A stretch of 64,000 bases of DNA from Eledone cirrhosa. Its lineage: Eukaryota. The position numbers and the translations under genes are program-made. The notes beneath the pieces are model-generated. The model did not search any database. It was not told where the DNA came from and saw only the letters and a list, made by a program, of their open reading frames with translations. Of this stretch, positions 9,001-54,000 are shown in pieces (position 1 is the first letter of the stretch; each line of letters starts with the position of its first letter). The stretch spans positions 7,750,001-7,814,000 of the forward strand of contig OZ024741.1 in assembly GCA_964016885.1 (NCBI GenBank), written 5' to 3'.

Positions 9001-12000
9001 ATGGAAGGGAGAGTAAGGTTTACTGTATTGTGAAGGGTATGTTGGTAAGATGGGAGGGAGAGTAATGTTTACCGTATGGTGAAGGGTGTGTTGGTAAGAT
9101 GGAAGGGAGAGTAAGGTTTACTGTATGGTGAAGGGTGTGTTGGTAAGATGGAAGGGAGAGTGTAAGGTTTACTGTATAGTGAAGGGTGTGTTGGTAAGAT
9201 GGAAGGGAGAGTGTAAGGTTTACTGTATGGTGAAGGGTGTGTTGGTAAGATGGAAGAGAGAGTGTAACGTTTACTGTATGGTGAAGGGTGTGTTGGTAAG
9301 ATGGAAGGGAGAGTGTAAGGTTTACCGTATGATGAAGGGTGTGTTGGTAAGATGGAAGGGAGAGTAAGGTTTACTGTATGGTGAAGGGTGTGTTGGTAAG
9401 ATGGAAGGGAGAGTGTAAGGTTTACTGTATGGTGAAGGGTGTGTTGGTAAGATGGAAGAGAGAATGTAACGTTTACTGTATGGTGAAGGGGGTGTTGGTA
9501 AGATGGAAGGGAGAGTGTAAGCTTTACTGTATGGTGAAGGGTGTGTTGGTAAGATGGAAGGGAGAGTGTAAGGTTTACTGTATGGTGAAGGGTGTGTTGG
9601 TAAGATGGAAGGGAGAGTAAGGTTTACTGTATGGCGAAGGGTGTGTTGGTAAGATGTAAGGGAGAGTGTAAGGTTTACTGTATGATAAAAGGTGTGTTGG
9701 TAAGATGGAAGGGAGAGTGTAAGGTTTACTGTATGGTGAAGGGTGTGTTGGTAAGATGGAAGGGAGAGTAAGGTTTACCGTATGGTGAAGGGTGTGTTGG
9801 TAAGGTGGAAGAGAGAGTAAGGTTTACCGTATGGTGAAGGGTGTGTTGGTAAGATGGAAGGGAGAGTAAGGTTCACTGTATGGTGAAGGGTGTGTTGGTA
9901 AGATGGAAGGGAGAGTAAGGTTTACTGTATTGTGAAGGGTATGTTGGTAAGATGGGAGGGAGAGTAATGTTTATCGTATGGTGAAGGGTGTGTTGGTAAG
10001 ATGGAAGGGAGAGTAAGGTTTACTGTATGGTGAAGGGTGTGTTGGTAAGATGGAAGGGAGAGTAATGTTTACTGTATGGTGAAGGGTGTGTTGGTAAGAT
10101 GGAAGGGAGAGTAAGGTTTACTGTATGGTGAAGGGTGTGTTGGTAAGATGGAAGGGAGAGTAAGGTTTACTGTATGGTGAAGGGTGTGTTGGTAAGATGG
10201 AAGGGAGAGTAAGGTTTACTGTATGGTGAAGGGTGTGTTGGTAAGATGGCCGGGAGAGTAAGGTTTACTGTATGGTGAAGGGTGTATTGGTAAGATGGAA
10301 GGGAGAGTAAGGTTTACTGTATGGTGAAGGGTGTGTTGGTAAGATGGAAGGGAGAGTAAGGTTTACTGTATCGTGAAGGGTGTGTTGGTAAGATGGAAGG
10401 GAGAGTAAGGTTTACTGTATGGTGAAGGGTGTGTTGGTAAGATGGAAGGGAGAGTAAGGTTTACTGTATTGTGAAGGGTATGTTGGTAAGATGGGAGGGA
10501 GAGTAATGTTTATCGTATGGTGAAGGGTGTGTTGGTAAGATGGAAGGGAGAGTAAGGTTTACTGTATGGTGAAGGGTGTGTTGGTAAGATGGAAGGGAGA
10601 GTAATGTTTACTGTATGGTGAAGGGTGTGTTGGTAAGATGGAAGGGAGAGTAAGGTTTACTGTATGGTGAAGGGTGTGTTGGTAAGATGGAAGGGAGAGT
10701 AAGGTTTACTGTATGGTGAAGGGTGTGTTGGTAAGATGGAAGGGAGAGTAAGGTTTACTGTATTGTGAAGGGTATGTTGGTAAGATGGGAGGGAGAGTAA
10801 TGTTTACCGTATGGTGAAGGGTGTGTTGGTAAGATGGAAGGGAGAGTAAGGTTTACTGTATGGTGAAGGGTGTGTTGGTAAGATGGAAGGGAGAGTGTAA
10901 GGTTTACTGTATAGTGAAGGGTGTGTTGGTAAGATGGAAGGGAGAGTGTAAGGTTTACTGTATGGTGAAGGGTGTGTTGGTAAGATGGAAGAGAGAGTGT
11001 AACGTTTACTGTATGGTGAAGGGTGTGTTGGTAAGATGGAAGGGAGAGTGTAAGGTTTACCGTATGTTGAAGGGTGTGTTGGTAAGATGGAAGGGAGAGT
11101 AAGGTTTACTGTATGGTGAAGGGTGTATTGGTAAGATGGAAGGGAGAGTAAGGTTTACCGTATGGTGAAGGGTGTGTTGGTAAGATGGAAGGGAGAGTGT
11201 AAGGTTTACTGTATGGTGAAGGGTGTGTTGGTAAGATGGAAGGGAGAGTGTAAGGTTTACTGTATGGTGAAGGGTGTGTTGGTAAGATGGTAGAGAGAGT
11301 GTAACGTTTACTGTATGGTGAAGGGTGTGTTGGTAAGATGGAAGGGAGAGTGTAAGGTTTACTGTATGGTGAAGGGTGTGTTGGTAAGATGGAAGGGAGA
11401 GTAAGGTTTACTGTATGGTGAAGGGTGGGTTGGTAAGATGTAAGGGAGAGTGTAAGGTTTACTGTATGGTGAAGGGTGTGTTGGTAAGATGGAAGGGAGA
11501 GTGTAGGTTTACTGTATGGTGAAGGGTGTGTTGGTAAGATGGAAGGGAGAGTAAGGTTTACTGTATGGTGAAGGGTGTGTTGGTAAGATGGAAGGGAGAG
11601 TAAGGTTTACTGTATGGTGAAGGGTGTGTTGGTTAGATGGAAGTGAGAGTGTAAGGTTTACCGTATGGTGAAGGGTGTGTTGGTAAGATGGAAGGCAGAG
11701 TAAGGTTTACCGTATGGTGAAGGGTGTGTTGGTAAGATGGAAGGGAGAGTAAGGTTTACTGTATGGTGAAGGGTGTGTTGGTAAGATGGAAGGGAGAGTA
11801 AGGTTTACCGTATTGTCTGGGTGTGTTGGTAAGATGGAAGGGAGAGTAAGGTTTACTGTATGGTGAAGGGTGTGTTGGTAAGATGGAAGGGAGGGTAAGG
11901 TTTACTGTATGGTGAAGGGTGTGTTGGTAAGACGGAAGGGAGAGTGTACGGTTTACTCTATGGTGAAGGGTGTGTTGGTAAGATGGAGGGGAGAGTCAGG

Positions 12001-27088: not shown

Positions 27089-27874
27089 TTAAACCAGCCA
27101 TCTCATTTCGCTTCTCTCTGATCGGTTGTTTATTTGCGGTTGCAGTCGTTTGATAAAAAGCGCTTCCTTGATACGTAACGTGCCGACGTTTCTTTCAGTC
27201 GCTAGAATTGTGACAATGGGCCTTCCGTCTTTGTTTCCGCATTTGTCTCTGTGTTTCCGGAAAGACGAGGCCCTGGTTTTAGTGTGTTCCTTGATCCGGA
27301 TGTGCAAAGGTCGAATTGTGCTACCTATGTAGTATTGGTTGCACCTGTCACATTCTATCTCATACACGACGTATGTGCGTAGGCAACAGTTCGCATGGCG
27401 TATCGGGCAGTCTCTGAGGGAGCATGCGTCAGTAGATTTTTCGGGTTCCTGGAGAGGCATCATCGCAGGGAGGGGCCCGAGTGGGCCAGGTGGATGTCGA
27501 GGCCCTCCCTCCGTATAGCCTTGCGGATAGCGTTGATGGTTTACTCGCCCAGGTGTGGAATTTTAAGGAAGCACTTGCCTTGGGTGCTTCTCTGTCTCTT
27601 GCGTCTGGTGTCTCCTATTCTGTCTGTGATCGAGGTAGTGTACCCGTTCGTCTCCAGCACCTCGAGGAATCGCTTGGTATGAGTGACACCACTCGCGGGA
27701 TCGCTGCATCTGTTTTTGATTCGCGCGATCTCGTTCGTGATGTATCCACTTTTGGCACTGTTAGGGAGGGCGGACTTGTAGTGAACGAATAGGTCCCTGC
27801 AGGCTGCCTTTCTGTAGAAGTTGCAGTGGATCCCTCCTTGTTCCGTGATGTTGATTCGGAAGTCGAGGAGGGCA
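27089..27874 (-). pseudogene. Disrupted PLE RT-thumb/GIY-YIG coding remnant
   Basis: In-frame TAA (~27541) and TGA (~27460) plus a frameshift before the GIY-YIG domain. Confidence 0.85.
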
Positions 27875-28219
27875 TATATATATTATTCAAAATATTAACA
27901 AATGAAAAATATTCTCATAATCAAAATATATACTTTATTATATATATTTATATATTTTGAATAATATTAAAAACTCCAGCAAAACCTTTCAGTTGAGTGC
28001 TTCTAATCTATTGTAAAATTGTATTTATTGAGTAATCAACGAACCATACTAATCTTTGGTTATATATATATACATAGTTCTAGTTGTTTCTCAACTTGAG
28101 ATGTGGAACAAAAATTTTGTTATATCATTTATACATATATATATATGTGTGTGTGTGTGTCTGTGTGTGTGGGAGGGGGGGGCATGTATATGTATAATTA
28201 TAGATATATATTAAGCAAA

Positions 28220-28435: not shown

Positions 28436-28683
28436 TATATATATATATATATATAGTTTAGAGATTGTATATTTCTAATGTATATTTCTAATGACTTGAT
28501 TTTTTATTTCATTGTTTTAACTTATATATATATATATATATCAAGATAAGCAGAACAAGTAAAAATTCAATCAATTTTTCAAAATAAATCAAAATTAATA
28601 TACAATCAAAATTAATCAAAATTAAAAAATATAATATAAATATTTACCTATTCAAATGGCCCTAACTGTACAGTTTCACGGTG

Positions 28684-28740: not shown

Positions 28741-28741
<1 letters not shown>

Positions 28742-30234
28742 TTGAAACACCCACGTCCCGTAGGGCCTACATAGGGTTAACCGCCAATAGATTCAAGCAG
28801 CGTCTTTACATGCATACCCATTCTTTTCGTTACCCTTTAAGAAGGAATATGACGTCACTTTCAGCTTATATCTGGAGTCTAAAAGACAACCATACCCAAT
28901 ATAAGTTACACTGGGAGATCCTAGCTAGGGCTAGATCGTATAACGGAAATAAAAGACCATGTGACCTCTGCGCTGCTGAGGCCCTGGAAATACTCTACGC
29001 CAAAGACCACATCTTAAAGAAAAAATCTGAGGCAATTTCGGCTTGTAAACATAAATTGCACAAAACTTTCCTGTATTACAGCCCCACATTATACCCTACC
29101 GGATCGTACGAACTATACGCGGATATTTTACGTCTTGATGTGGTAGCTAAGTATATGTTATGTTTATACCATTACTTATTTGTATAGGTAAGTATATATT
29201 ACCTGTATGTTTTATGAAGGTACGTATACTTCCTCGTACGTATATTTGATTGTATGTGTTATGGCGTATATATTATATATTCTGGTACATATGCTTTTGG
29301 TTATGTGTATACGTGAGTTTTGCGTCTGTGTGAGTATGTGGGTTCGTACGTATGTAGGGTGTGTGTATATGTGTACTTAGTGTTTTGGTTGACGTACGTC
29401 TCCGAACATATGTATATTTACATGTAGGTATGTGTGTGCGCTTGTTTTATACGTATTTATTTATTTATATACGTTTATTTAATTATTGTATGCACGCACA
29501 CACACACACACACATATATATATATTAATATATATATTTTTATATATATTTTTGTGTGTATTTGGTGTATACATTCATATGCGTGCGGGTACAGGCGCTG
29601 CGTGAGTTCCGTATGTGTGTGTGGGGTTTTTTTTGTGTGTACGTGCGTGTATTTGTATACCTATGGCAAGTGTTTTCGCGTATGCTTGTGTTTGTACGTT
29701 ATGGAAGCGTGTATGTATTTACTTCAATTACCTCTGTATTTTATTTACTTTATTCTTAACTCTGAAGCCGAGAATCATTCGGTTTCCTAGTTAGAATTTT
29801 AGTCTACGACTTCAGTTATACTATTTACGTGGTTTTGCCTTTGCGTGTAATTGTTTTTTTCCGCTCCAAATAATGACGTATTATCTTCGTTTTTTTCCCA
29901 TTCTTTGCCAGGGAACGTTTCCACGAACCAAAGTATCGTCTTCCTGTCTTCCTCCGGTTGCAACGTTTTTTGAAATATTCACTTCTGCGCTCATAGATTG
30001 ACTTTGTTAGTTTCAGAAGATCCCGTTAAGGGTGAAAGCAGCAACTTAAACTTTAATCTGTTATTTTAATAAACACTCATCTTTTTCCATTTCTCCGAGG
30101 GTTATAAACCCCACTATCAGGCTAGAAATTTCTTTAGTCTAAAATACGGTGAAAGCTTATAATTTCAAATTTCTAATTTCAAACTCGCGCACCGTTTCAA
30201 AATCATACTTACTTGTTTACATTTATATTTTGCT

Positions 30235-30236: not shown

Positions 30237-30304
<68 letters not shown>

Positions 30305-30309
<5 letters not shown>

Positions 30310-31108
30310 AGATAAGCAGAACAAGCAAAATTCAAACAATTCTTTAAAATAAATTAAAAAATATAATTTAAATATTTACCTATTCCAATTGCTTTTACCG
30401 ATCGGTTTCACTTCAGAAAAGATTGAAGATCCATGGGGACTTCCAATGGAAAAGTTTAGTTCATCAGAAAGCATTTTCCTTTCTTAGAACTAAAAATCCC
30501 AGGAACGGCAAAATATATTGCCATCTGCCAGCTAGCACAGGATCGAATGGGGCCGAAAATTTGACCTGTACATGAACCAGTCCGTAGTAGAAGTGGAAGT
30601 AAACATAGGCGTGTTGTCTACCTCACCACTAAAAATAGCAGCTAAATAGAACAACAGATTTGTTCTCTACATAACGGAGAATATTAAAAGAAGTTAATAT
30701 GCCCACAGGTACTAAGTACCCCTGGAAATATATAGGGTGTCTATGATACAATGGTTGTTCTATGGTATTAATTTGATATACCAGAACTATAATATTGAGA
30801 TAAGCAGAACAAGCAAAATTCAAACAATTCTTTAAAATAAATAAAAAAATATAATTTAAATATTTACCTATTCCAATTGCTTTTACCGATCGGTTTCACT
30901 TCACAAAAGATTGGTAAAAGCAATTGGAATAGGTAAATATTTAAATTATATTTTTTAATTTATTTTAAAGAATTGTTTGAATTTTGCTTGTTCTGCTTAT
31001 CTCAATATTATAGTTCTGGTATGTCAAATTAATACCATAGAACAACCATTGTATCATAGACACCCTATATATTTCCAGGGGTACTTAGTACCTGTGGGCA
31101 TATTAACT

Positions 31109-31115
<7 letters not shown>
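30305..31115 (-). mobile_element. Non-coding PLE insertion: partial tandem pLTR plus inverted truncated copy
   Basis: Direct repeat 30307-30424 / 30794-30913; inverted repeat 30685-30890 / 30909-31115; (TA)n on both sides; diverged relative at 28540-28685. Confidence 0.85.
30391..30472 (-). ncRNA. Canonical type-I hammerhead ribozyme with palindromic stem/loop III
   Basis: Reverse complement: GCUUU-CUGAUGA-ACU...AGU-GAAA-CCGAUCGG-UA-AAAGC. Confidence 0.88.
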
Positions 31116-31161
<46 letters not shown>

Positions 31162-32083: not shown

Positions 32084-32495
32084 GGGAGAGATGACCCCTT
32101 AGCCTTTGTCAAGGCAGAATTCTAGGAGAAGGAAAACTCTGATATAACACCTGCAACCCTGATGGTATCCAATGATGTTGACTTGTTCTTCTTTTTGGTA
32201 AATATCATCTTGGTTAAGAGAGTGGGACTGGCTTTGTGCAGTGCCTTTGCTCACTATAAAAGCTTCACGGCACAGGCATTGCTTTATATCTGGAGATCTC
32301 TCTGCACTTGTCGTCACATGGTACCATGGGTCCAGCACTATGTGTCAATAATTGTCACAAGTGTAGTGTTTGTACCAGAGTTTTCAAGTCGCTGGCTGGA
32401 CTAAAAAGTCACACTCGTTCAGCGCATCGGTAGGGGTTCTCCTACATGGATATAAAGTAGTGGCCGTACTCGAAAACGAGTTGGCAGCCACCATG
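32084..32495 (+). mobile_element. RTE-derived non-autonomous element copy
   Basis: Near-identical to 24323-24725; embedded in (TATG)n. Confidence 0.8.
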
Positions 32496-33156: not shown

Positions 33157-33765
33157 CAGGTCACCAGTTGGTGCTACTGGTAACATGTATCCCAGTACAA
33201 CCTGTCTCATGGTCGGGTCGTTGGCGACTAAACTGGCAACGCCACCAAGGTTTCTTGGTGAGGAGGGTGACTTTGGACATCCTGCAGGACTAAAAACAAA
33301 ACCTGTCAAAGGGCAAGGGAGCTCTTAAGAGTCAATAGCCATCCAAAATCACCGGGAGAGATGACCCCTTAGCCTTTGTCAAGGCAGAATTCTAGGAGAA
33401 GGAAAACTCTGATATAACACCTGCAACCCTGATGGTATCCAATGATGTTGACTTGTTCTTCTTTTTGGTAAATATCATCTTGGTTAAGAGAGTGGGACTG
33501 GCTTTGTGCAGTGCCTTTGCTCACTATAAAAGCTTCACAGCACAGGCATTGCTTTATATCTGGAGATCTCTCTGCACTTGTCGTCACATGGTACCATGGG
33601 CCCTGCACTATGTGTCAATAATGGTCACAAGTGTAGTCTTTGTACCAGAGTTTTCAAGTCGCTGGCTGGACTAAAAAGTCACATTCGTTCAGCGCATCAG
33701 TAGGGGTTCTCCTACATGGATATAAGGTAGTGGCCGTACTCGAAAACGAGTTGGCAGCCACCATG
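33157..33765 (+). mobile_element. Longest copy of the RTE-derived non-autonomous element
   Basis: Extends ~200 bp further 5' than the other copies; (TATG)n at both ends. Confidence 0.8.
33159..33236 (+). ncRNA. Candidate HDV-like ribozyme at element 5' end
   Basis: P1 GGUCA/UGGUC, P2 CCAGU/ACUGG, CC/GG P1.1, P4 UCG-UUGG-CGA, J4/2 CUAA; P3 is not well formed in this copy. Confidence 0.4.
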
Positions 33766-35939: not shown

Positions 35940-36006
35940 CAAATGGAAACTATATTTATAAAACCATACTTATTAGCAAGACATACCCTTTTCAAAGACC
36001 CCCTGT

Positions 36007-36387
36007 ATGGATAAGAAATGTATAACCTGTAAAATAAGCCCCCATATTAACCGTAAAACTAGAAATGTAGTGTATAGCATAAGATGTACTGAAGGACGAT
36101 GTAGAGACAAAAATATAGTGTACATAGGTGAGACAGCTCGTAATGTAGGGGAACGGATAAATGAACACTGGCGAGACCTTCAAGATAGTAAAGAATCATC
36201 TGTACTCTACCAACATGCTAAAATAGAACATAAGGGTAAATTAGAGAACATAGAAATAAAAATAGAATCTACACACAGAAAAGACACAATGTTTAGACAA
36301 ATCACAGAGGCAATAAACATAAAAGAATTACAACCAAAATTAAATAGAAAATATGAGTGGAACAGCAACATCACAACTTACAATTAA
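36007..36387 (+). pseudogene. PLE GIY-YIG endonuclease domain (open but 5'-truncated)
   Basis: CITC..NVVYSIRCTEGRC..VYIGETARNVGERINEH..SVLYQH..RQITEAINIKELQPKLN. Confidence 0.9.
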
Positions 36388-37219: not shown

Positions 37220-37437
37220 GATCGAGTATCGAAAAATCGGCGCACGAGTTCACGATAAACAAAATTCGAAATGAGCGGCAGAGGGCTCAATAATTCAGAT
37301 GAATCAGAGCTATAACTATCGTTAAAATACCGTCACATATAGAACAAGTCTACAATCAACCATACGATAAAAAATCGATAATAGAAGATTCGGGACAAAC
37401 AGATAAAAAATATCAATAAAACAATACATCAATAATT

Positions 37438-37472
<35 letters not shown>

Positions 37473-37506
37473 CGATTTATTTATTAAAATAAATATATAT
37501 ATTTCT

Positions 37507-40500
37507 ATGTGTAGTTGTGTGGTTGTGTGTGTGGTTGTGTGTGTGTGGTTGTGTGTGGTTGTGTGTGTGGTTGTGTGTGTGGTTGTGTGTGTGGTTGTGT
37601 GTGGTTGTGTGTGTGGTTGTGTGTGGTTGTGTGTGTGGTTGTGTGTGTGGTTGTGTGTGTGGTTGTGTGTGAGGTTGTGTGTGTGGTTGTGTGTGTGGTT
37701 GTGTGTGGTTGTGTGTGTGGTTGTGTGTGTGGTTGTGTGTGGTTGTGTTTGTGGTTTGTGTGTGGTTGTGTGTGTGGTTGTTTGTGTGGTTGTGTGTGGT
37801 TTGTGTGTGGTTGTGTATGTGGTTGTGTGTGTGGTTGTGTGTGGTTGTGTGTGTGGTTGTGTGTGTGGTTGTGTGTGGTTGTGTTTGTGGTTGTGTGTGG
37901 TTGTGTGTGTGGTTGTGTGTGTGGTTGTGTGTGTGGTTGTGTGTGAGGTTGTGTGTGTGGTTGTGTGTGTGGTTGTGTGTGTGGTTGTGTGTGTGGTTGT
38001 ATGTGAGGTTGTGTGTGTGGTTGTGTGTGGTTGTGTGTGTGGTTGTGTGTGTGGTTGTGTGTGTGTGGTTGTGTGTGGTTGTGTGTGTGGTTGTGTGTGT
38101 GGTTGTGTGTGTGGTTGTGTGTGTGGTTGTGTGTGGTTGTGTGTGGTTGTGTTTGTGGTTGTGTGTGGTTGTGTGTGTGGTTCTGTGTGTGGTTGTGTGT
38201 GTGGTTGTGTGTGGTTGTGTGTGTGTGGTTGTGTGTGTGGTTGTGTGTGTGGTTGTGTGTGTGGTTGTGTATGTGGTTGTGTGTGTGGTTGTGTGTGGTT
38301 GTGTGTGGTTGTGTGTGTGGTTGTGTGTGGTTGTGTGTGTGGTTGTGTGTGTGGTTGTGTGTGTGGTTGTGTGTGAGGTTGTGTGTGTGGTTGTGTGTGT
38401 GGTTGTGTGTGGTTGTGTGTGTGGTTGTGTGTGTGGTTGTGTGTGGTTGTGTTTGTGGTTGTGTGTGTTGTGTGTGTGGTTCTGTGTGTGGTTGTGTGTG
38501 TGGTTGTGTGTGTGGTTGTGTGTGTGTGGTTGTGTGTGGTTGTGTGTGGTTGTGTGTGGTTGTGTGTGTGGTTGTGTGTGTGGTTGTGTGTGTGGTTGTG
38601 TGTGAGGTTGTGTGTGTGGTTGTGTGTGGTTGTGTGTGTGGTTGTGTGTGTGGTTGTGTGTGTGGTTGTGTGTGGTTGTGTGTGTGGTTGTGTGTGTGGT
38701 TGTGTGTGTGGGTGTGTGTGAGGTTGTGTGTGTGGTTGTGTGTGGTTGTGTGTGTGGTTGTGTGTGTGGTTGTGTGTGTGGTTGTGTGTGGTTGTGTGTG
38801 TGGTTGTGTCTGATTGTGTGTGTGGTTGAGTGTGTGGTTGTGTGTGGTTGTGTGTGTGGTTGTGTGTGGTTGTGTGTGGTTGTGTGTGATTGTGTGTGTG
38901 GTTGTGTGTGTGGTTGTGTGTGTGGTTGTTTGTGTGGTTGTGTGTGGTTTGTGTGTGGTTGTGTATGTGGTTGTGTGTGTGGTTGTGTGTGGTTGTGTGT
39001 GTGATTGTGTGTGTGGTTGTGTGTGGTTGTGTTTGTGGTTGTGTGTGGTTGTGTGTGTGGTTCTGTGTGTGGTTGTGTGTGTGGTTGTGTGTGGGGTTGT
39101 GTGTGGTTGTGTGTGTGGTTGTGTGTGTGGTTGTGTGTGTGGTTGTGTGTGTGGTTGTGTATGTGGTTGTGTGTGGTTGTGTGTGTGGTTGTGTGTGTGG
39201 TTGTGTGTGGTTGTGTGTGTGGTTGTGTGTGTTGTTGTGTGTGGTTGTGTATGTGGTTGTGTGTGGTTGTGTGTGTGGTTGTGTGTGTGGTTGTGTGTGG
39301 TTGTGTGTGTGGTTGTGTGTGTGGTTGTGTGTGGTTGTGTGTGTGGTTGTGTGTGTGGTTGTGTGTGGTTGTGTGTGTGGTTGTGTGTGTTGTTGTGTGT
39401 GGTTGTGTGTGTGGTTGTGTGTGTGGTTGTGTGTGGTTGTGTGTGTGGTTGTCTGTGTTGTTGTGTGTGTGGTTGTGTGTGTGGTTGCGTGTGTTGTTGT
39501 GTGTGATTGTGTGTGTGGTTGTGTGTGTGGTTGTGTGTGTGGTTGTTTGTGTGGTTGTGTGTGGTTTGTGTGTGGTTGTGTGTGTGGTTGTTTGTGTGGT
39601 TGTGTGTGGTTTGTGTGTGGTTGTGTATGTGGTTGTGTGTGTGGTTGTGTGTGGTTGTGTGTGTGGTTGTGTGTGTGGTTGTGTGTGGTTGTGTTTGTGG
39701 TTGTGTGTGGTTCTGTGTGTGGTTCTGTGTGTGGTTGTGTGTGTGGTTGTGTGTGGGGTTGTGTGTGGTTGTGTGTGTGGTTGTGTGTGTGGTTGTGTGT
39801 GTGGTTGTGTGTGGTTGTGTGTGTGGTTGTGTGTGGTTGTGTGTGTGGTTGTGTGTGTGGTTGTGTGTGGTTGTGTGTGTGGTTGTGTGTGTTGTTGTGT
39901 GTGGTTGTGTGTGTGGTTGTGTGTGTGGTTGTGTGTGGTTGTGTGTGTGGTTGTGTGTGTTGTTGTGTGTGTGGTTGTGTGTGTGGTTGCGTGTGTGGTT
40001 GTGTGTGGTTGTGTGTGTGGTTGTGTGTGATTGTGTGTGTGGTTATGTGTGTGGTTGTGTGTGTGGTTGTATGTGTGGTTGTGTGTGGTTGTGTGTGTGG
40101 TTGTGTGTGTGGTTGTGTGTGGTTGTGTATGTGGTTGTGTGTGTGGCTGTGTGTGGTTGTGTGTGTGGTTGTGTGTGTGTTTGTGTGTCTGGTTGTGTGT
40201 GGTTGTGTATGTGGTTGTGTGTGTGGTTGTGTGTGGTTGTGTGTGTGGTTGTGTGTGGTTATGTGTGTGGTTGTGTGTGGTTGTGTGTGTGATTATGTGT
40301 GGTTGTGTGTGTGGTTGTGTGTGGTTGTGTGTGGTTGTGTGTGTGGTTGCGTGTGTGGTTGTATGTGTGGTTGTGTGTGGTTGTGTGTGTGGTTGTGTGT
40401 GTGGTTGTGTGTGGTTGTGTGTGTGGTTGTGTGTGGTTGTGTGTGGTTGTGTGTGTGGTTGCGTGTGTGGTTGTATGTGTGGTTGTGTGTGGTTGTGTGT

Positions 40501-42035
40501 GTGGTTGCGTGTGTGGTTGTGTGTGGTTGTGTGTGTGGTTGTGTGTGATTGTGTGTGTGGTTATGTGTGTGGTTGTGTGTGTGGTTGTGTGTGGTTGTGT
40601 GTGTGTGGTTTTGTGTGGTTGTGTGTGTGGTTTTGTGTGTGGTTGTGTGTGTGGTTGTATGTGTGGTTGTGTGTGGTTGTGTGTGTGGTTGTGTGTGTGG
40701 TTGTGTGTGGTTGTGTGTGGTTGTGTGTGTGGTTGTGTGTGGTTGTGTGTGGTTGTGTGTGGTTGTGTGTGGTTGTCTGTGTGGTTGTGTGTGTGTGGTT
40801 GTGTGTGGTTGTGTGTGGTTGTGTGTGTGGTTGTGTGTGGTTGTGTGTGTGGTTGTGTGTGGTTGTGTGTGGTTGTGTGTGTGGTTGTGTGTGTGGTTGT
40901 GTGTGGTTGTGTGTGGTTGTGTGTGTGGTTGTGTGTGGTTGTGTGTGTGGTTGTGTGTGGTTGTGTGTGGTTGTGTGTGGTTGTGTGTGTGGTTGTGTGT
41001 GTGGTTGTGTGTGGTTGTGTGTGTGGTTGTGTGTGTGGTTGTGTGTGGTTGTGTGTGGTTGTGTGTGTGGTTGTGTGTGGTTGTGTGTGTGGTTGTGTGT
41101 GGTTGTGTGTGGTTGTGTGTGTGGTTGTGTGTGGTTGTGTGTGTGGTTGTGTGTGGTTGTGTGTGGTTGTGTGTGGTTGTGTGTGTGGTTGTGTGTGGTT
41201 GTGTGTGTGGTTGTGTGTGGTTATGTGTGGTTGTGTGTGTGGTTGTGTGTGGTTGTGTGTGGTTGTGTGTGTGGTTGTGTGTGGTTGTGTGTGTGGTTGT
41301 GTGTGTGGTTGTGTGTGGTTGTGTGTGGTTGTGTGTGTGGTTGTGTGTGGTTGTGTGTGTGGTTGTGTGTGGTTGTGTGTGGTTGTGTGTGGTTGTGTGT
41401 GTGGTTGTGTGTGTGGTTGTGTGTGGTTGTGTGTGGTTGTGTGTGTGGTTGTGTGTGTGGTTGTGTGTGGTTGTGTGTGGTTGTGTGTGTGGTTGTGTGT
41501 GGTTGTGTGTGTGGTTGTGTGTGTGGTTGTGTGTGGTTGTGTGTGGTTGTGTGTGTGGTTGTGTGTGGTTGTGTGTGTGGTTGTGTGTGGTTGTGTGTGT
41601 GGTTGTGTGTGGTTGTGTGTGTGGTTGTGTGTGGTTGTGTGTGGTTGTGTGTGTGGTTGTGTGTGTGGTTGTGTGTGGTTGTGTGTGTGGTTGTGTGTGG
41701 TTGTGTGTGTGGTTGTGTGTGTGGTTGTGTGTGGTTGTGTGTGTGGTTGTGTGTGTGGTTGTGTGTGTGGTTGTGTGTGGTTGTGTGTGGTTGTGTGTGG
41801 TTGTGTGTGGTTGTGTGTGTGGTTGTGTGTGTGGTTGTGTGTGGTTGTGTGTGTGGTTGTGTGTGGTTGTGTGTGGTTGTGTGTGTGGTTGTGTGTGTGG
41901 TTGTGTGTGTGGTTGTGTGTGGTTGTGTGTGTGGTTGTGTGTGTGGTTGTGTGTGGTTGTGTGTGTGGTTGTGTGTGTGGTTGTGTGTGGTTGTGTGTGT
42001 GGTTGTGTGTGTGGTTGTGTGTGTGGTTGTGTGTG
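37507..42035. repeat. 4.5-kb GT-rich minisatellite of mixed GGTTGTGTGT / GGTTGTGTGTGT units
   Basis: Direct reading; Cys/Val-rich ORFs are artefacts. Confidence 0.97.
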
Positions 42036-42059
42036 TCTCCAAGTTTAACAAATATAACG

Positions 42060-42590
42060 ACCCCTCCCCCTCCCTACAATACGCCCACTACTTTTATCTC
42101 CCCCCTCCCGCACCAATCACCCCTCCCCATCTTTACCACCCCTTCCACCCCAACTACTAACTCTCCCCACTTCTCTCACGACACCACCCCTCTCACTAGC
42201 CCGCTCCTCCACCACTACTGCCTTCCTCATCACCATTTGACCACCCCACCACTACCACCACCACCACCACCACTACCATTACAACCCCACTCTCACTCAC
42301 ATCCCCACAAACACGATCACCACTGACTCCTCCTCACCGCCACCACTAGCTCCCCCCACCCCAATCTTATCTCCCCTTAACCCCACCACCATCTTCCTCT
42401 ACCCTATTCCCACCCTCACCTCCTCTATCACCCTGCCCTACCTCCACCGCCATCTCGCGCACCCTACTACCACCTTCCCGCATCACCCCTACCTCCACCC
42501 TCATCCCCCACATCTCCCTCCACCACCACCACTATCACCCCTACCTCCACTCACATCCCCACATCTCCCACCACCACCACCACCACCAAT
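42060..42590. repeat. C-rich low-complexity tract (CCA/CCT-like)
   Basis: Direct reading. Confidence 0.8.
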
Positions 42591-43803: not shown

Positions 43804-44087
43804 CACGCACACAAGCGTACACACATAATATATAAATATGTGTGTACATATACATAAGTATGTGTGTTTGTTATGTATGTCTAAGTATTTATGTATACGT
43901 ACACACAGGCACACACACACATATATATAGATATGCACATACATATACGTATATGTACATACACGCATATCCACGCACGTTTACGCCCTCTCACGCAGAC
44001 AGACGTAACTTTCATATATACATAATTAGATTTGCACATATACACTCTGTCAAGCTGATCACACAAAAACAAACGCACACGCACTCA

Positions 44088-44155
<68 letters not shown>

Positions 44156-44224
44156 GAGAGAGAGAGAGAAACACACACACATACATACACATATACACGT
44201 GTATAGCTTACTATATAAAACGCC

Positions 44225-44430
44225 TGCTTTACTGGTTAGTGCGTTCAGCTCACAATCGTGACGTTGCGAATTCGAATCCCGGACAGGGGGATGCGTCGTG
44301 TCCTTGAGCAAGACACTCTACTTGACGTTGCTCCAGTTTCCTCAGCTGTACAAATGAGTTGTGACATCACTGATGTCAAGCTGTATCGGCCATTACCTTT
44401 CCCTTTGACAATATCGGTGATGTGCGAGAC
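44225..44430 (+). mobile_element. tRNA-derived SINE
   Basis: TGGTTAGTGCG..GAATTCGAATCCC..GTGTCCTTGAGCAAGACACT..CAGCTGTACAAATGAGT. Confidence 0.75.
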
Positions 44431-45079
44431 TGTACCAGATTACAGCTAAATACAGCACTCAAAACCCCTAACAGGGTACATACTTAATTCATAATTTATT
44501 TCACATAGAAAGTCCAGATGATTTTAATTGAATGAAACCGTACTAGTCCTGTAGAAGTAATTCTATATGAAATAAACTATATTTTGTAATTCTCACTTAT
44601 GTATTTGTCACTGACTCGTCTCTTCAATTTATCGTATTTGGCGCCGATTCGAAAGCCTTTAACTCTCTTATTTGTAATCTTTAGACAGATGATTGCAACT
44701 TAGCAGCAAATACTGTTGAAGATATTCTACTTCTCGTTGACCTTTACATGTCATCTATTTGGGAGGAGGCAAATTGACGTTAGAACGTTGGATAGAGGGT
44801 TTGGTGGTATTTATTTCAGCTGTCTGCTTTCTGAGTTCATCTTTTCAATTTCGATAAAAAAGTACCAGTCAAGAACTGGTGTTGATTCTTCCTCTATATC
44901 TCTTTCTTATTTCCTCTTTCTCACTTTCTATCTTTCTCTGGGGGAAATCTGCTGTACGCAGGCCTGGAGAGAGATGAGATCCGCCAGGCTTAAAATGCCA
45001 AAGAAACACCACATGTCAATATTGTGCCCCTACGACCCCAGGAGTTACGGGATAGGAAAAAGAAGAATCTATTTGATTA

Positions 45080-48000
45080 GAGTATTACCCTAGACTAGAC
45101 AGCTGTAAGGCTCCAGTGTTATCCTAGACTAGACAGTTGTAAAGTTCCAGTGTTACCCTAGACAGTTGTAAAGTTCCAGTGTTTCCTTAGACAGTGGTAA
45201 AGTTCCAGTGTTACCCTAGACAGTTGTAAAGTTCCAGTGTTACCCTAGACAGTGGTAAAGTTCCAGTGTTTCCCTAGACAGTGGTAAATTTCCAGTGTTA
45301 CACTAGATAGTCGTAAAGTTCCAGTGTTTCCCTAGACAGTGGTAAAGTTCCAGTGTTACCCTAGACAGTGGTAAAGTTCCAGTGTTACCCTAGACAGTGG
45401 TAAAGTTCCAGTGTTACACTAGACAGTGGTAAAGTTCCAGTGTTTCCCTAGACAGTGGTAAAGTTCCAGTGTTTCCCTAGACAGTGGTAAAGTTCCAGTG
45501 TTTCCCTAGACAGTGGTAAAGTTCCAGTGTTACCCTAGACAGTTGTAAAGTTCCAGTGTTACACTAGACAGTGGTAAAGTTCCAGTGTTTCCTTAGACAG
45601 TGGTAAAGTTCCAGTGTTACCCTAGACAGTGGAAAAGTTCCAGTGTTTCCCTAGACAGTGGTAAATTTCCAGTGTTACACTAGATAGTTGTAAAGTTCCA
45701 GTGTTTCCCTAGACAGTGGTAAAGTTCCAGAGTTTCCCTAGACAGTGGTAAAGTTCCAGTGTTTCCCTAGACAGTGGTTAAGTTCCAGTGTTACCCTAGA
45801 CAGTGGTAAAGTTCCAGTGTTACCCTAGACAGTGGTAAAGTTCCAGTGTTTCCCTAGACAGTGGTAAAGTTCCAGTGTTACCCTAGACAGTTGTAAAGTT
45901 CCAGTGTTACCCTAGACAGTTGTAAAGTTCCAGTGTTACCCTAGACAGTTGTAAGGCTCCAGTGTTACCCTAGACAGTGGTAAAGTTCCAGTGTTACCCT
46001 AGACAGTGGTAAAGTTCCAGTGTTACCCTAGACAGTGGTAAAGTTCCAGTGTTACCCTAGACAGTGGTAAGGCTCCAGTGTTACCCTAGACAGTGGTAAA
46101 GTTCCAGTGTTACCCAAGACAGTGGTAAAGTTCCAGTGTTTCCCTAGACAGTGGTAAAGTTCCAGTGTTTCCCTAGACAGTGGTAAAGTTCCAGTGTTTC
46201 CCTAGACAGTGGTAAAGTTCCAGTGTTACCCTAGACAGTTGTAAAGTTCCAGTGTTACACTAGACAGTGGTAAAGTTCCAGTGTTTCCCTAGACAGTGGT
46301 AAAGTTCCAGTGTTACCCTAGACAGTGGTAAAGTTCCAGTGTTTCCCTGGTCAGAGGTAAAGTTCCAGTGTTTCCCTAGACAGTGGTAAAGTTCCAGTGT
46401 TACCCTAGACAGTTGTAAAGTTCCAGTGTTACACTAGACAGTGGTAAAGTTCCAGTGTTTCCCTAGACAGTGGTAAAGTTCCAGTGTTTCCCTAGACAGT
46501 GGTAAAGTTCCAGTGTTTCCCTAGTCAGTGGTAAAGTTCCAGTGTTTCCCTAGACAGTGGTAAAGTTCCAGTGTTACCCTAGACAGTTGTAAAGTTCCAG
46601 TGTTACCCTAGACAGTGGTAAAGTTCCAGTGTTACCCTAGACAGTGGTAAAGTTCCAGTGTTTCCCTAGACAGTGGTAAAGTTACAGTGTTACCGTAGAC
46701 AGTTGTAAAGTTCCAGTGTTACCCGAGACAGTTGTAAAGTTCCAGTGTTACCCTAGATAGTTGTAAGGCTTCAGTGTTACCATAGACAGTGGTAAAGTTC
46801 CAGTGTTACCCTAGACAGTGGTAAAGTTCCAGTGTTACCCTAGACAGTGGTAAAGTTCCAGTGTTACCCTAGACAGTTGTAAGGCGCCAGTGTTACCCTA
46901 GACAGTGGTAAAGTTCCAGTGTTACCCAAGACAGTGGTAGAAGTTCCAGTGTTACCCTAGACAGTTATAAAGTTCCAGTGTTACCCTAGACAGTTGTAAA
47001 GTTCCAGTATTACAATAGACAGTGGAAAGTTCCAGTGTTAACCTAAATAGTTCTAAAGTTCCTGTGTTACCCTAGACAGTTGTAAAGTTCCAGTGTTACC
47101 CTAGACAGTGGTAAAGTTCCAGTGTTACCCTAGACAGTTGTAAAGTGCCAGTGTTACCCTAGACAGCGGTAAAGTTCCAGTGTTACCCTAGATAGTTCTA
47201 AAGTTCCAGTGTTACCCTAGACAATGGTAAAGTTCCAGTGGTACCCTAGACAGTTGTAAAGTTCCAGTGTTACGCTAAATAGTTCTAAACTTCCAGTGTT
47301 ACCTTAGACAGTGGTAAAGTTCCTGTGTTACACTAGCCAGTGGTAAAGTTCCAGTGTTAACTTAGACAGTTGTAAAGTTCCAGTGTTGCCTTAGACAGTG
47401 GTAAAGTTCCAGTGTTACCCTACACTACACAGTTGTAAAGATCCAGTGTTACCCTAGACAGTGGTAAAGATCCAGTGTTACCCTAGACAGTGGTAAAGTT
47501 CCAGTGTTACCCTAGATAGTTGTAAAGTTCCAGTGTTACCCTAGACAGTTGTAAACTTCCAGTGTTATCCTAGACTAGACAGTTGTAAAGCTCCAGTGTT
47601 ACCCTAGACAGTGGTAAAGTTCCAGTGTTACCCTAGACAGTGGTAAAGTTCCAGTGTTACCCTAAATAGTTCTAAAGTTCCAGTGTTACCCTAGACAGTG
47701 GTAAACTTCCAGTGTTACCCTAGACAGATGTAAAGTTCCAGTGTTACCATAGACAGTGGTAAAGTTCCAGTGTTAAACTAGACAGTTGTAAAGTTCCAGT
47801 GTCACCCTAGACAGTGGTAAAGTTCCAGTGTTACCCTAGACTAGACAGTTGTAAAGCTCCAGTGTTACCCTAGACAGTCGTAAAATTCCAGTGTTACCCT
47901 AGACAGTGGTAAAGTTCCAGTGTTACCCTAGACAGTTGTAAAGTTCCAGTGTTACCCTAGACAGTGGTAAAGTTCCAGTGTTTCCCTAGACAGTGGTAAA

Positions 48001-51000
48001 TTTCCAGTGTTACACTAGATAGTTGTAAAGTTCCAGTGTTTCCCTAGACAGTGGTAAAGTTCCAGTGTTACACTAGACAGTGGTAAAGTTCCAGTGTTTC
48101 CTTAGACAGTGGTAAAGTTCCAGTGTTACCCTAGACAGTGGAAAAGTTCCAGTGTTTCCCTAGACAGTGGTAAATTTCCAGTGTTACACTAGATAGTTGT
48201 AAAGTTCCAGTGTTTCCCTAGACAGTGGTAAAGTTCCAGTGTTTCCCTAGACAGTGGTAAAGTTCCAGTGTTTCCCTAGACAGTGGTTAAGTTCCAGTGT
48301 TACCCTAGACAGTGGTAAAGTTCCAGTGTTACCCTAGACAGTGGTAAAGTTCCAGTGTTTCCCTAGACAGTGGTAAAGTTCCAGTGTTACCCTAGACAGT
48401 TGTAAAGTTCCAGTGTTACCCTAGACAGTGGTAAAGTTACAGTGTTACCGTAGACAGTTGTAAAGTTCCAGTGTTACCCGAGACAGTTGTAAAGTTCCAG
48501 TGTTACCCTAGACAGTTGTAAGGTTTCAGTGTTACCATAGACAGTGGTAAAGTTCCAGTGTTACCCTAGACAGTGGTAAAGTTCCAGTGTTACCCTAGAC
48601 AGTGGTAAAGTTCCAGTGTTACCCTAGACAGTTGTAAGGCGCCAGTGTTACCCTAGACAGTGGTAAAGTTCCAGTGTTACCCAAGACAGTGGTAGAAGTT
48701 CCAGTGTTACCCTAGACAGTTGTAAAGTTCCAGTGTTACCCTAGACAGTTCTAAAGTTCCAGTGTTACCCTAGACAGTTATAAAGTTCCAGTGTTGCCCT
48801 AGACAGTTGTAAAGTTCCAGTGTTACCCAAGACAGTGGTAAAGTTCCAGTGTTACCCTAGACAGTTGTAAAGTGCCAGTGTTACCCTAGACAGCGGTAAA
48901 GTTCCAGTGTTACCCTAGATAGTTCTAAAGTTCCAGTGTTACCCTAGACAATGGTAAAGTTCCAGTGGTACCCTAGACAGTTGTAAAGTTCCAGTGTTAC
49001 CCTAAATAGTTCTAAAGTTCCAGTGTTAACTTAGACAGTTGTAAAGTTCCAGTGTTGCCTTAGACAGTGGTAAAGTTCCAGTGTTACCCTACACTACACA
49101 GTTGTAAAGATCCAGTGTTACCCTAGACAGTGGTAAAGTTCCAGTGTTACCCTAGACAGTGGTAAAGTTCCAGTGTTACCCTAGATAGTTGTAAAGTTCC
49201 AGTGTTACCCTAGACAGTTGTAAACTTCCAGTGTTATCCTAGACTAGACAGTTGTAAAGCTCCAGTGTTACCCTAGACAGTGGTAAAGTTCCAGTGTTAC
49301 CCTAGACAGTGGTAAAGTTCCAGTGTTACCCTAGACAGTGGAAAAGTTCCAGTGTTTCCCTAGACAGTGGTAAATTTCCAGTGTTACACTAGATAGTTGT
49401 AAAGTTCCAGTGTTTCCCTAGACAGTGGTAAAGTTCCAGAGTTTCCCTAGACAGTGGTAAAGTTCCAGTGTTTCCCTAGACAGTGGTTAAGTTCCAGTGT
49501 TACCCTAGACAGTGGTAAAGTTCCAGTGTTACCCTAGACAGTGGTAAAGTTCCAGTGTTTCCCTAGACAGTGGTAAAGTTCCAGTGTTACCCTAGACAGT
49601 TGTAAAGTTCCAGTGTTACCCTAGACAGTTGTAAAGTTCCAGTGTTACCCTAGACAGTTGTAAGGCTCCAGTGTTACCCTAGACAGTGGTAAAGTTCCAG
49701 TGTTACCCTAGACAGTGGTAAAGTTCCAGTGTTACCCTAGACAGTGGTAAAGTTCCAGTGTTACCCTAGACAGTGGTAAGGCTCCAGTGTTACCCTAGAC
49801 AGTGGTAAAGTTCCAGTGTTACCCAAGACAGTGGTAAAGTTCCAGTGTTTCCCTAGACAGTGGTAAAGTTCCAGTGTTTCCCTAGACAGTGGTAAAGTTC
49901 CAGTGTTTCCCTAGACAGTGGTAAAGTTCCAGTGTTACCCTAGACAGTTGTAAAGTTCCAGTGTTACACTAGACAGTGGTAAAGTTCCAGTGTTTCCCTA
50001 GACAGTGGTAAAGTTCCAGTGTTACCCTAGACAGTGGTAAAGTTCCAGTGTTTCCCTGGTCAGAGGTAAAGTTCCAGTGTTTCCCTAGACAGTGGTAAAG
50101 TTCCAGTGTTACCCTAGACAGTTGTAAAGTTCCAGTGTTACACTAGACAGTGGTAAAGTTCCAGTGTTTCCCTAGACAGTGGTAAAGTTCCAGTGTTTCC
50201 CTAGACAGTGGTAAAGTTCCAGTGTTTCCCTAGTCAGTGGTAAAGTTCCAGTGTTTCCCTAGACAGTGGTAAAGTTCCAGTGTTACCCTAGACAGTTGTA
50301 AAGTTCCAGTGTTACCCTAGACAGTGGTAAAGTTCCAGTGTTACCCTAGACAGTGGTAAAGTTCCAGTGTTTCCCTAGACAGTGGTAAAGTTACAGTGTT
50401 ACCGTAGACAGTTGTAAAGTTCCAGTGTTACCCGAGACAGTTGTAAAGTTCCAGTGTTACCCTAGATAGTTGTAAGGCTTCAGTGTTACCATAGACAGTG
50501 GTAAAGTTCCAGTGTTACCCTAGACAGTGGTAAAGTTCCAGTGTTACCCTAGACAGTGGTAAAGTTCCAGTGTTACCCTAGACAGTTGTAAGGCGCCAGT
50601 GTTACCCTAGACAGTGGTAAAGTTCCAGTGTTACCCAAGACAGTGGTAGAAGTTCCAGTGTTACCCTAGACAGTTATAAAGTTCCAGTGTTACCCTAGAC
50701 AGTTGTAAAGTTCCAGTATTACAATAGACAGTGGAAAGTTCCAGTGTTAACCTAAATAGTTCTAAAGTTCCTGTGTTACCCTAGACAGTTGTAAAGTTCC
50801 AGTGTTACCCTAGACAGTGGTAAAGTTCCAGTGTTACCCTAGACAGTTGTAAAGTGCCAGTGTTACCCTAGACAGCGGTAAAGTTCCAGTGTTACCCTAG
50901 ATAGTTCTAAAGTTCCAGTGTTACCCTAGACAATGGTAAAGTTCCAGTGGTACCCTAGACAGTTGTAAAGTTCCAGTGTTACGCTAAATAGTTCTAAACT

Positions 51001-54000
51001 TCCAGTGTTACCTTAGACAGTGGTAAAGTTCCTGTGTTACACTAGCCAGTGGTAAAGTTCCAGTGTTAACTTAGACAGTTGTAAAGTTCCAGTGTTGCCT
51101 TAGACAGTGGTAAAGTTCCAGTGTTACCCTACACTACACAGTTGTAAAGATCCAGTGTTACCCTAGACAGTGGTAAAGTTCCAGTGTTACCCTAGACAGT
51201 GGTAAAGTTCCAGTGTTACCCTAGATAGTTGTAAAGTTCCAGTGTTACCCTAGACAGTTGTAAACTTCCAGTGTTATCCTAGACTAGACAGTTGTAAAGC
51301 TCCAGTGTTACCCTAGACAGTGGTAAAGTTCCAGTGTTACCCTAGACAGTGGTAAAGTTCCAGTGTTACCCTAAATAGTTCTAAAGTTCCAGTGTTACCC
51401 TAGACAGTGGTAAACTTCCAGTGTTACCCTAGACAGATGTAAAGTTCCAGTGTTACCATAGACAGTGGTAAAGTTCCAGTGTTAAACTAGACAGTTGTAA
51501 AGTTCCAGTGTCACCCTAGACAGTGGTAAAGTTCCAGTGTTACCCTAGACTAGACAGTTGTAAAGCTCCAGTGTTACCCTAGACAGTCGTAAAATTCCAG
51601 TGTTACCCTAGACAGTGGTAAAGTTCCAGTGTTACCCTAGACAGTTGTAAAGTTCCAGTGTTACCCTAGACAGTGGTAAAGTTCCAGTGTTTCCCTAGAC
51701 AGTGGTAAATTTCCAGTGTTACACTAGATAGTTGTAAAGTTCCAGTGTTTCCCTAGACAGTGGTAAAGTTCCAGTGTTACACTAGACAGTGGTAAAGTTC
51801 CAGTGTTTCCTTAGACAGTGGTAAAGTTCCAGTGTTACCCTAGACAGTGGAAAAGTTCCAGTGTTTCCCTAGACAGTGGTAAATTTCCAGTGTTACACTA
51901 GATAGTTGTAAAGTTCCAGTGTTTCCCTAGACAGTGGTAAAGTTCCAGTGTTTCCCTAGACAGTGGTAAAGTTCCAGTGTTTCCCTAGACAGTGGTTAAG
52001 TTCCAGTGTTACCCTAGACAGTGGTAAAGTTCCAGTGTTACCCTAGACAGTGGTAAAGTTCCAGTGTTTCCCTAGACAGTGGTAAAGTTCCAGTGTTACC
52101 CTAGACAGTTGTAAAGTTCCAGTGTTACCCTAGACAGTGGTAAAGTTACAGTGTTACCGTAGACAGTTGTAAAGTTCCAGTGTTACCCGAGACAGTTGTA
52201 AAGTTCCAGTGTTACCCTAGACAGTTGTAAGGTTTCAGTGTTACCATAGACAGTGGTAAAGTTCCAGTGTTACCCTAGACAGTGGTAAAGTTCCAGTGTT
52301 ACCCTAGACAGTGGTAAAGTTCCAGTGTTACCCTAGACAGTTGTAAGGCGCCAGTGTTACCCTAGACAGTGGTAAAGTTCCAGTGTTACCCAAGACAGTG
52401 GTAGAAGTTCCAGTGTTACCCTAGACAGTTGTAAAGTTCCAGTGTTACCCTAGACAGTTCTAAAGTTCCAGTGTTACCCTAGACAGTTATAAAGTTCCAG
52501 TGTTGCCCTAGACAGTTGTAAAGTTCCAGTGTTACCCAAGACAGTGGTAAAGTTCCAGTGTTACCCTAGACAGTTGTAAAGTGCCAGTGTTACCCTAGAC
52601 AGCGGTAAAGTTCCAGTGTTACCCTAGATAGTTCTAAAGTTCCAGTGTTACCCTAGACAATGGTAAAGTTCCAGTGGTACCCTAGACAGTTGTAAAGTTC
52701 CAGTGTTACCCTAAATAGTTCTAAAGTTCCAGTGTTAACTTAGACAGTTGTAAAGTTCCAGTGTTGCCTTAGACAGTGGTAAAGTTCCAGTGTTACCCTA
52801 CACTACACAGTTGTAAAGATCCAGTGTTACCCTAGACAGTGGTAAAGTTCCAGTGTTACCCTAGACAGTGGTAAAGTTCCAGTGTTACCCTAGATAGTTG
52901 TAAAGTTCCAGTGTTACCCTAGACAGTTGTAAACTTCCAGTGTTATCCTAGACTAGACAGTTGTAAAGCTCCAGTGTTACCCTAGACAGTGGTAAAGTTC
53001 CAGTGTTACCCTAGACAGTGGTAAAGTTCCAGTGTTACCCTAAATAGTTCTAAAGTTCCAGTGTTACCCTAGACAGTGGTAAACTTCCAGTGTTACCCTA
53101 GACAGATGTAAAGTTCCAGTGTTACCATAGACAGTGGTAAAGTTCCAGTGTTAAACTAGACAGTTGTAAAGTTCCAGTGTCACCCTAGACAGTGGTAAAG
53201 TTCCAGTGTTACCCTAGACTAGACAGTTGTAAAGCTCCAGTGTTACCCTAGACAGTCGTAAAATTCCAGTGTTACCCTAGACAGTGGTAAAGTTCCAGTG
53301 TTACCCTAGACAGTTGTAAAGTTCCAGTGTTACCCTAGACAGTGGTAAAGTTCCAGTGTTTCCCTAGACAGTGGTAAATTTCCAGTGTTACACTAGATAG
53401 TTGTAAAGTTCCAGTGTTTCCCTAGACAGTGGTAAAGTTCCAGTGTTACACTAGACAGTGGTAAAGTTCCAGTGTTTCCTTAGACAGTGGTAAAGTTCCA
53501 GTGTTACCCTAGACAGTGGAAAAGTTCCAGTGTTTCCCTAGACAGTGGTAAATTTCCAGTGTTACACTAGATAGTTGTAAAGTTCCAGTGTTTCCCTAGA
53601 CAGTGGTAAAGTTCCAGTGTTTCCCTAGACAGTGGTAAAGTTCCAGTGTTTCCCTAGACAGTGGTTAAGTTCCAGTGTTACCCTAGACAGTGGTAAAGTT
53701 CCAGTGTTACCCTAGACAGTGGTAAAGTTCCAGTGTTTCCCTAGACAGTGGTAAAGTTCCAGTGTTACCCTAGACAGTTGTAAAGTTCCAGTGTTACCCT
53801 AGACAGTGTTAAAGTTACAGTGTTACCGTAGACAGTTGTAAAGTTCCAGTGTTACCCGAGACAGTTGTAAAGTTCCAGTGTTACCCTAGACAGTTGTAAG
53901 GTTTCAGTGTTACCATAGACAGTGGTAAAGTTCCAGTGTTACCCTAGACAGTGGTAAAGTTCCAGTGTTACCCTAGACAGTGGTAAAGTTCCAGTGTTAC

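Follow-up and report, generated by a model that had tools for sequence, protein, structure and literature searches.

The insert at positions 30305-31115 of the window (by which we mean the whole 64,000-nt stretch analysed, from contig OZ024741.1 of Eledone cirrhosa) is a dispersed copy of a non-coding 488-nt hammerhead family. It was probably inserted into a TA microsatellite by a borrowed reverse transcriptase/endonuclease of Penelope type that was copying what was likely a circular RNA monomer. This family, F1, is by its testable features an animal non-LTR retrozyme, and it bears the insertion marks of EN+ Penelope-like elements (PLEs).

Architecture of the insert

Set in (TA)n, the insert is built from a 488-bp unit, to which a 121-bp partial repeat and a 207-bp inverted arm are added (Table 1). 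Read along the minus strand, the inverted arm is followed by the 609-nt main arm and then by (TA)n, and the far end likewise abuts (TA)n; because both ends lie inside these runs, any target site duplication, which in metazoan non-LTR retrozymes exceeds 4 bp when present, is masked. The direct repeat (30305-30425 and 30793-30913) carries 2 differences in 121 nt and the inverted arm differs from 30685-30891 at 3 of 207 positions, so that the insert is neither brand new nor a read-level duplication. An earlier reading of the letters without database searches (the sequence-only reading) had described an ~810-bp insert of PLE-type architecture, with a partial tandem repeat, an inverted truncated copy, and no coding remnant. 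The partial tandem, the inverted arm and the lack of a coding remnant are borne out, and the period, which had been put at ~487 bp, is corrected to 488. The longest stop-free frame is 88 aa, and a Pfam scan of 10 of the 21 listed ORF frames gave no match at the cut-off and a single one below it (E 0.071). The unit's GC content is under 50%, as in metazoan non-LTR retrozymes, and its predicted MFE as a circle is -127.4, against -95.7 ± 5.4 in 40 shuffles (z -5.8).

Table 1. Features of the insert and of a sister fragment, in window coordinates
Feature	Position	Strand
(TA)n target run, 3' end of main arm	30238..30304	
Main (sense) arm: 121-nt partial unit plus one full 488-nt turn; ends at fixed site A, ~92-96 nt past the predicted cut	30305..30913	-
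Complete type I hammerhead	30391..30472	-
488-nt cut-to-cut monomer; 34% GC, without ORF, predicted well-folded circle	30396..30883	-
Internal copy of the A-B stretch: site A ~30792-30788, site B ~30685-30681, both AAUAU-type; two predicted hairpins between	30681..30792	-
3' half of second hammerhead: part of stem II, GAAA, palindrome, UA, AAAGC; without CUGAUGA	30879..30913	-
Inverted arm, 207 nt, from palindrome region to fixed site B, ~199-203 nt past the cut; joins main arm at ~30909-30913	30909..31115	+
(TA)n target run, 3' end of inverted arm	31116..31156	
150-nt 5'-truncated copy of sister F3 (528-nt unit, palindrome CUGUACAG); ends at F3 site A in (TA)n; without core	28533..28682	-

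Two other places in the window had been singled out by the same reading. The diverged relative with a different palindrome at ~28660-28680 (minus strand) is real and proves to be the F3 fragment of Table 1. The CGCGCG at ~18979 is likewise present; the element that holds it does not match the insert by BLAST, and a CUGANGA core was not seen nearby. That element (18730-19040) is a head-to-head inverted insert of an abundant unrelated family, with 55 matches among 40 scored candidates and many two-armed copies, which reads GAAA-CGCGCG-UC; the window copy has AUAA where 6/6 other loci have GAAA. Three more small head-to-head inverted inserts, recognized by eye beside TA runs at ~19170-19440, 20020-20340, and 20450-20650, are likely other PLE-type ends. 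Farther along lies a 300-nt direct repeat (32084-32383 and 33354-33653, 98% identity) that adjoins (ATGT)n runs and has a weaker third copy at 33891. Long blocks of uniform composition at 1-14000, ~37400-42100, and 44000-64000, the first two with extreme GC skew, are probably tandem or simple repeats.

A dispersed family and its sisters

Exact patterns of 23-24 nt matched at least 185 dispersed genome sites (68 + 117), against 0 for reversed controls. The 99 F1 inserts analysed here are the window insert, 58 loci, with which the first pattern is covered completely, and 40 taken from the 100 of 117 second-pattern matches listed. Their 5' ends are scattered over phases 6-469 (numbered from the predicted cut); main arms measure 123-813 nt, with one of ~1,050, and exceed 500 nt in 33/99, the longest amounting to ~2.2 units. 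A fixed transcription start near phase 335, which the longest copies had suggested, was dropped because stops rise steadily with length. TA runs lie directly 3' of 69/99 inserts and directly 5' of 60/99. Li et al. (2026) call a retrozyme 'active' when it has at least two consecutive complete ribozymes (10.64898/2026.07.22.740005); two complete tandem ribozymes occur in 7/99 F1 inserts, and the window copy has one whole ribozyme and half of another. The F1 family and its head-to-tail joint also appear in contigs of three outside runs, all of a single sample. F1 is an older, partly decayed family.

With a looser pattern there were 1,923 genome sites, against 3 in the control, and the 100 matches listed belong to sister families F2, F3, and F4, whose units are 483, 528, and 488 nt long. 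Similarity to F1 is 83% for F4 and 74% for F3, and F2 has almost no BLAST similarity to it. The F2 insert at locus L179 (G000:C1:82114500-82122500) is very young: 4,270 nt long, it runs through 8.8 units with 2 private changes, sits in (TA)n, and also has a 172-nt inverted arm. The sequence-only reading had suggested a genome-wide search for multi-unit tandem arrays of its ~487-bp unit; such arrays exist in a sister family, and the F1 unit itself closes head to tail.

A further F2-like sister, with an imperfect 9-nt palindrome in stem III (CCGAUUCGG), was seen at L033:3363-3910 and L042:1715-1873. Different retrozyme families lie side by side in or near one TA run at L021/L034 (G000:C1 ~238.02 Mb), L033, and L046, and at L034 the tails of an F1 and an F2 insert abut.

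A type I hammerhead with a palindromic stem III

A descriptor scan found one complete type I hammerhead in the insert. On the minus strand it is made up of stem I GCUUU (30472-30468, pairing with AAAGC), the core CUGAUGA (30467-30461), a 51-nt stem II (30460-30410), GAAA (30409-30406), the palindromic stem/loop III CCGAUCGG (30405-30398), and UA, with the predicted cut at 30396/30395. The self-complementary stem/loop III that had been reported from the letters is therefore where it should be, between GAAA and UA; the label of a minimal hammerhead does not suit a ribozyme with an 8-nt stem/loop III and a 51-nt stem II. The second hammerhead copy is cut inside stem II and lacks CUGAUGA, which leaves the insert with one complete ribozyme. 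A stem-II-less look-alike at 30416, CUGAAG-U-GAAA, was rejected: its C is a private change inside stem II, at a position that is G in 94/96 family copies and in all contigs of one outside sample. No hammerhead family appears in the 150 of 183 Rfam matches listed, for which the long stem II may be the reason.

The core, which lay outside the family search pattern, is well conserved in the family copies (C3 89/89, U4 88/89, G5 89/89, A6 87/89, G8 85/90, A9 89/90). Stems I, II, and III covary across the four families in 14 hand-picked sequences, with 84% paired against 31-49% for slid controls and with 9/17 pairs changed on both sides; the 14 rows are related, so that they stand for few events and not for 14. 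At the base of stem II there is a U.U in 77/91 copies, the window copy being among the 14 with A-U. For the isolated motif the active fold (-11.3 kcal/mol) is predicted to be less stable than the MFE fold (-18.4).

The palindrome is predicted to form a duplex of -16.6 kcal/mol, against -1.8 for two hairpins, and its central pair, which forms only in the dimer, has changed from AU to UA in sister F3, in one event. Action of the ribozyme as a dimer through the palindrome is plausible on this evidence. At 68 sites the palindrome is exactly CCGAUCGG; at 117/185 it is imperfect, as CCGUCGG or CCGUUCGG (predicted duplex ~-11), which counts against strict dimer dependence.

Thirteen nucleotides past the predicted cut, in all four families, there is a donor-like AG/GUAAA, an invariant UAGGUAAA followed by a U-rich stretch (window ~30382-30375, minus strand). 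The invariant element resembles a splice donor or a protein-binding site; for an intron reading, the acceptor-like site is not common to F2 and F3.

Further canonical-looking type I hammerheads are present in the window at 18357, 19713, 20235, 26220, 35311, 36987, and 43555 on the plus strand and at 20119 on the minus strand, with a weak one at 20572 (plus). Several of them have a short palindromic stem III (CUAG, CACAUG, CGGCCG), and one type, UAUUUUAU-CUGAUGA...GAAA-UAUGUA-UA, recurs.

Two fixed 3' ends used reciprocally

The 3' ends of the 99 F1 inserts fall at site A (65 inserts, 85-97 nt past the predicted cut) or site B (30 inserts, 190-204 nt), with 4 elsewhere; two AAUAU-type sites, 107 nt apart, together terminate 95/99 inserts. 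An inverted 5' piece is present in 36/99, a share inflated by the 13/40 second-pattern loci that were picked for two nearby matches or a known partial tandem. Both outer ends are at A or B in 26 of these inserts, and one end lies elsewhere in 10. Among the 26, the combinations are 13 B/A, 12 A/B, 1 A/A, and 0 B/B, so that 25 are mixed where independent site use predicts 43% (P 1.2e-8); the window insert itself has A on the main arm and B on the inverted arm. The sister families, F2 included, keep two ends 103-108 nt apart, and in 15/16 of their scorable two-armed inserts the sites are mixed (20 inverted in 51 examined), which brings the total over F1 and its sisters to 40/42.

Such reciprocity is the outcome to be expected if one complex assigns one site to each target strand, an assignment step that we infer from the ends. 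L1-type twin priming, in which one cDNA stops where the other starts, was rejected because the starts of the main arms show no clustering at either site. A literature search, which covered the listings of mostly freely accessible papers, turned up no statement of a reciprocal two-site rule and no cephalopod retrozyme.

Circular or linear template

For 239 crossings of the ribozyme cut site by the cDNAs there are 4 stops near it, where 6.3 would be expected, so the template was continuous at the cut, either as a circle or as an uncut multimer. The sequence-only reading had proposed that a ~490-nt hammerhead-to-hammerhead unit could be a retrozyme-like, possibly circular RNA copied by a PLE reverse transcriptase. 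The retrozyme-like element stands, and the enzyme is probably that of a PLE; a simple linear hammerhead-to-hammerhead template is disfavoured by these counts.

Comparison of units bears on how the monomer comes to be repeated. Subfamily-diagnostic sites of F1 differ by 7-8% within inserts and by 31% between them; private differences are similar within (3.4-4.0%) and between inserts (4.2%), as expected of an older burst. For F2, the within-insert difference is 0-1.4% in 12/17 multi-pass inserts, against between-insert medians of 5-14%, and 5/17 inserts have variants common to every pass and absent from the other 20 sampled inserts, which may represent unsampled subfamilies. An element that is copied linearly from internal starts can lose length but not regain it; for inserts of several uniform units to arise in many haplotypes, one monomer must therefore be repeated at some step. 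The simplest such step is a circle, and a circular RNA template is the reading to which these patterns, on balance, point. Circular RNA has been shown for coral, mussel, and axolotl retrozymes, for which a PLE helper was proposed (PMC7229834). In some inserts (e.g., L037, L089, L095, and L100) units differ at linked diagnostic sites, for which a single circle is insufficient without template switching or conversion. Further points against the circular reading are that 8/9 predicted retrozyme dimers did not cleave in one study (10.64898/2026.07.22.740005), that F1 arrays reach no more than ~2.2 units and seldom hold two complete ribozymes, that U.U at the stem II base and an imperfect palindrome are common in F1, and that the active fold is the less stable one in prediction.

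The mixed units would sit well with a read-through RNA that is transcribed from a tandem source locus and stays linear and uncleaved, a possible but rather unlikely template that leaves twin priming unchanged, has the ribozyme acting elsewhere or surviving as a relic, and lets long arrays arise rarely. Continuity at the cut site fits it equally. For one PLE protein in vitro, uncleaved RNA was the dominant substrate and ribozyme mutants were still inserted (PMC11167929), so that a linear multimer is also compatible with these data. Most F1 copies also have a weak stem II base, and most an imperfect palindrome. Such a transcript would nevertheless have to rebuild the multi-unit length that internal 3' starts and 5' truncation remove, supply many different haplotypes each uniform across the units of an insert, and, for the 8.8-unit insert, reach 4.3 kb uncut at nine ribozymes.

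Less probable again, and in our view improbable, is a cleaved linear monomer as template, with tandem cDNA arising when the reverse transcriptase, at the 5' end, jumps to a 3' end, either that of the monomer just copied or that of a second one. Jumps of this kind would account for uniform units and for occasional mixed ones, and 4 segments start 4-6 nt past the cut and insert L121 ends at it; they should, however, have left an excess of stops at the cut, which the crossings do not show, and the cut-site columns are intact in the aligned copies, although the search pattern itself imposed this on one pass per locus.

Relationship to Penelope-like elements

Three stretches of the window, 27089-27882 (minus), 28741-29187 (plus), and 35977-36387 (minus), resemble the C-terminus of PLE reverse transcriptase and the GIY-YIG endonuclease, from at least three families; none is joined to the insert. 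The density of such fragments, in the window and near many loci, would be natural if the unit were no more than an autonomous PLE's pLTR or 3' end, represented here by 5'-truncated copies. This reading, which the sequence-only reading had itself named as one to check, is largely refuted and now very unlikely. In a tblastn search with four partial PLE proteins as ORF probes, 0/99 F1 inserts were contiguous with a PLE EN/RT match or linked to a PLE ORF; on the same strand, the closest 5' match lies 400 nt from an insert, behind its inverted arm. Inserts continue head to tail into their own unit and not into ORF sequence, and their 5' flanks have no common extension. No ORF-linked relative emerged from tblastn with the four window PLE fragments, from a ribozyme scan downstream of EN matches, from an nhmmer profile run over 1.16 Mb of sampled loci, or from a pattern that excluded the four known families (4 matches, all point variants of those families; control 2). 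In the sampled inserts, the F1 unit is not the bare pLTR of an ORF-bearing copy.

An assembly artefact, or a local duplication or fold-back at the TA run, might be suspected from the long TA runs on both flanks, and is hardly credible given the differences between the repeated parts (2/121 and 3/207), the recurrence of the geometry at dozens of unlinked loci, and the presence of the head-to-tail joint in the outside contigs.

What is known of PLE insertion accords with a borrowed PLE enzyme. One PLE protein, a predicted dimer, is reported to cut both strands of AT-rich DNA and to initiate cDNA at either of two internal positions, by which the genomic tail is defined (PMC11167929). This tail is often found at one end only (PMC8557442; PMC3846280), and PLE inserts show an inverted 5' copy and a microsatellite bias (PMC8557442).

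Comparison with known elements

A retrozyme fits the unit well; as an idea it is not new, having already been published for animals (PMC7229834), and a 2026 preprint argues that animal retrozymes are non-autonomous PLE derivatives (10.64898/2026.07.22.740005). F1 shares with the metazoan non-LTR retrozymes a head-to-tail unit of low GC content that codes for no protein and carries a single type I hammerhead, a well-paired predicted circle, and the PLE as proposed helper (PMC7229834). Axolotl HHR_Amex2, which cuts better as a dimer, is like F1 in its 2-bp stem III with a tetraloop and in the U.U at the base of stem II (PMC7229834). At 488 nt, the F1 unit is above the retrozyme range of 150-450 (PMC7229834) and inside that of 51-972 (10.64898/2026.07.22.740005). 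F1 departs from described retrozymes in its 51-nt stem II and in copies that are mostly 0.3-1.7 units long and dispersed in (TA)n; its two fixed 3' ends and two-armed inserts are absent from the retrozyme descriptions that we compared.

With EN+ PLE insertions F1 has in common the partial tandem, the head-to-head inverted truncated copy, the AT-rich or microsatellite target, two alternative 3' ends, and an extension that is often at one end only (PMC8557442; PMC3846280; PMC11167929). It differs from them in having no ORF and in a 'tail' of ~107 nt instead of 30-40. Both start sites in F1 share AU microhomology with the target, unlike the non-homologous ones of PAc (PMC11167929), and the A/B reciprocity that is near-strict by count in F1 and its sisters is only qualitative in the EN+ PLE literature compared. 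Non-autonomous Chlamys PLEs such as MRC1 are, like F1, ORF-less PLE derivatives, with pLTRs and multicopy head-to-tail insertions (PMC8557442). Minimal PLE hammerheads resemble that of F1 in being type I, in their predicted dimer function, and in their tie to PLE-type repeats (PMC4209133). The minimal class is, however, defined by a missing helix III/loop 3 (PMC4209133), and with its 8-nt palindromic stem/loop III and long helix II the F1 hammerhead is, to judge from its sequence, closer to the canonical class.

A model for insertion

On the favoured reading, that of a circular monomer copied by a borrowed PLE enzyme, a locus with two ribozymes would be transcribed and the RNA would cut itself, probably aided by pairing of the two palindromic stems III; the released 488-nt monomer would then be closed by a host ligase, as shown for other animal retrozymes. 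A PLE protein would bind the structured A-B stretch and cut both strands of a (TA)n run. One target end would start cDNA at A and the other at B, the two ends at which the inserts are observed to terminate, and these AAUAU-type sites are capable of pairing with TA repeats. From its start each cDNA extends backwards across the ribozyme cut, in many cases beyond a single turn, before halting at a position that varies. If a single cDNA survived, the result would be a plain partial tandem; if both did, their truncated ends would be joined to give the head-to-head form, bounded by A on one side and by B on the opposite side.

We further suggest, tentatively and with less than even confidence, that one dimeric PLE protein grips the circular RNA by the 107-nt two-hairpin element, presents A to one target strand and B to the other, and rolls from both ends of the break, in which case retrozyme families would record the geometry of the PLE insertion complex.

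In the literature consulted, the formation of tandem and inverted PLE ends and the insertion of animal retrozymes are both treated as open questions. The retrozyme class is already known, and the gain lies in sharpening a test, not in a new type of system: with its two exact, reciprocally used start sites, a small element that lacks an ORF is a ready substrate for the question of circle versus linear template. Were the two-strand arrangement correct, a single event would account for both the PLE 'tail at one end' and the inverted pLTR, and the 107-nt element would act as a transferable signal by which any RNA circle could be inserted at TA repeats.
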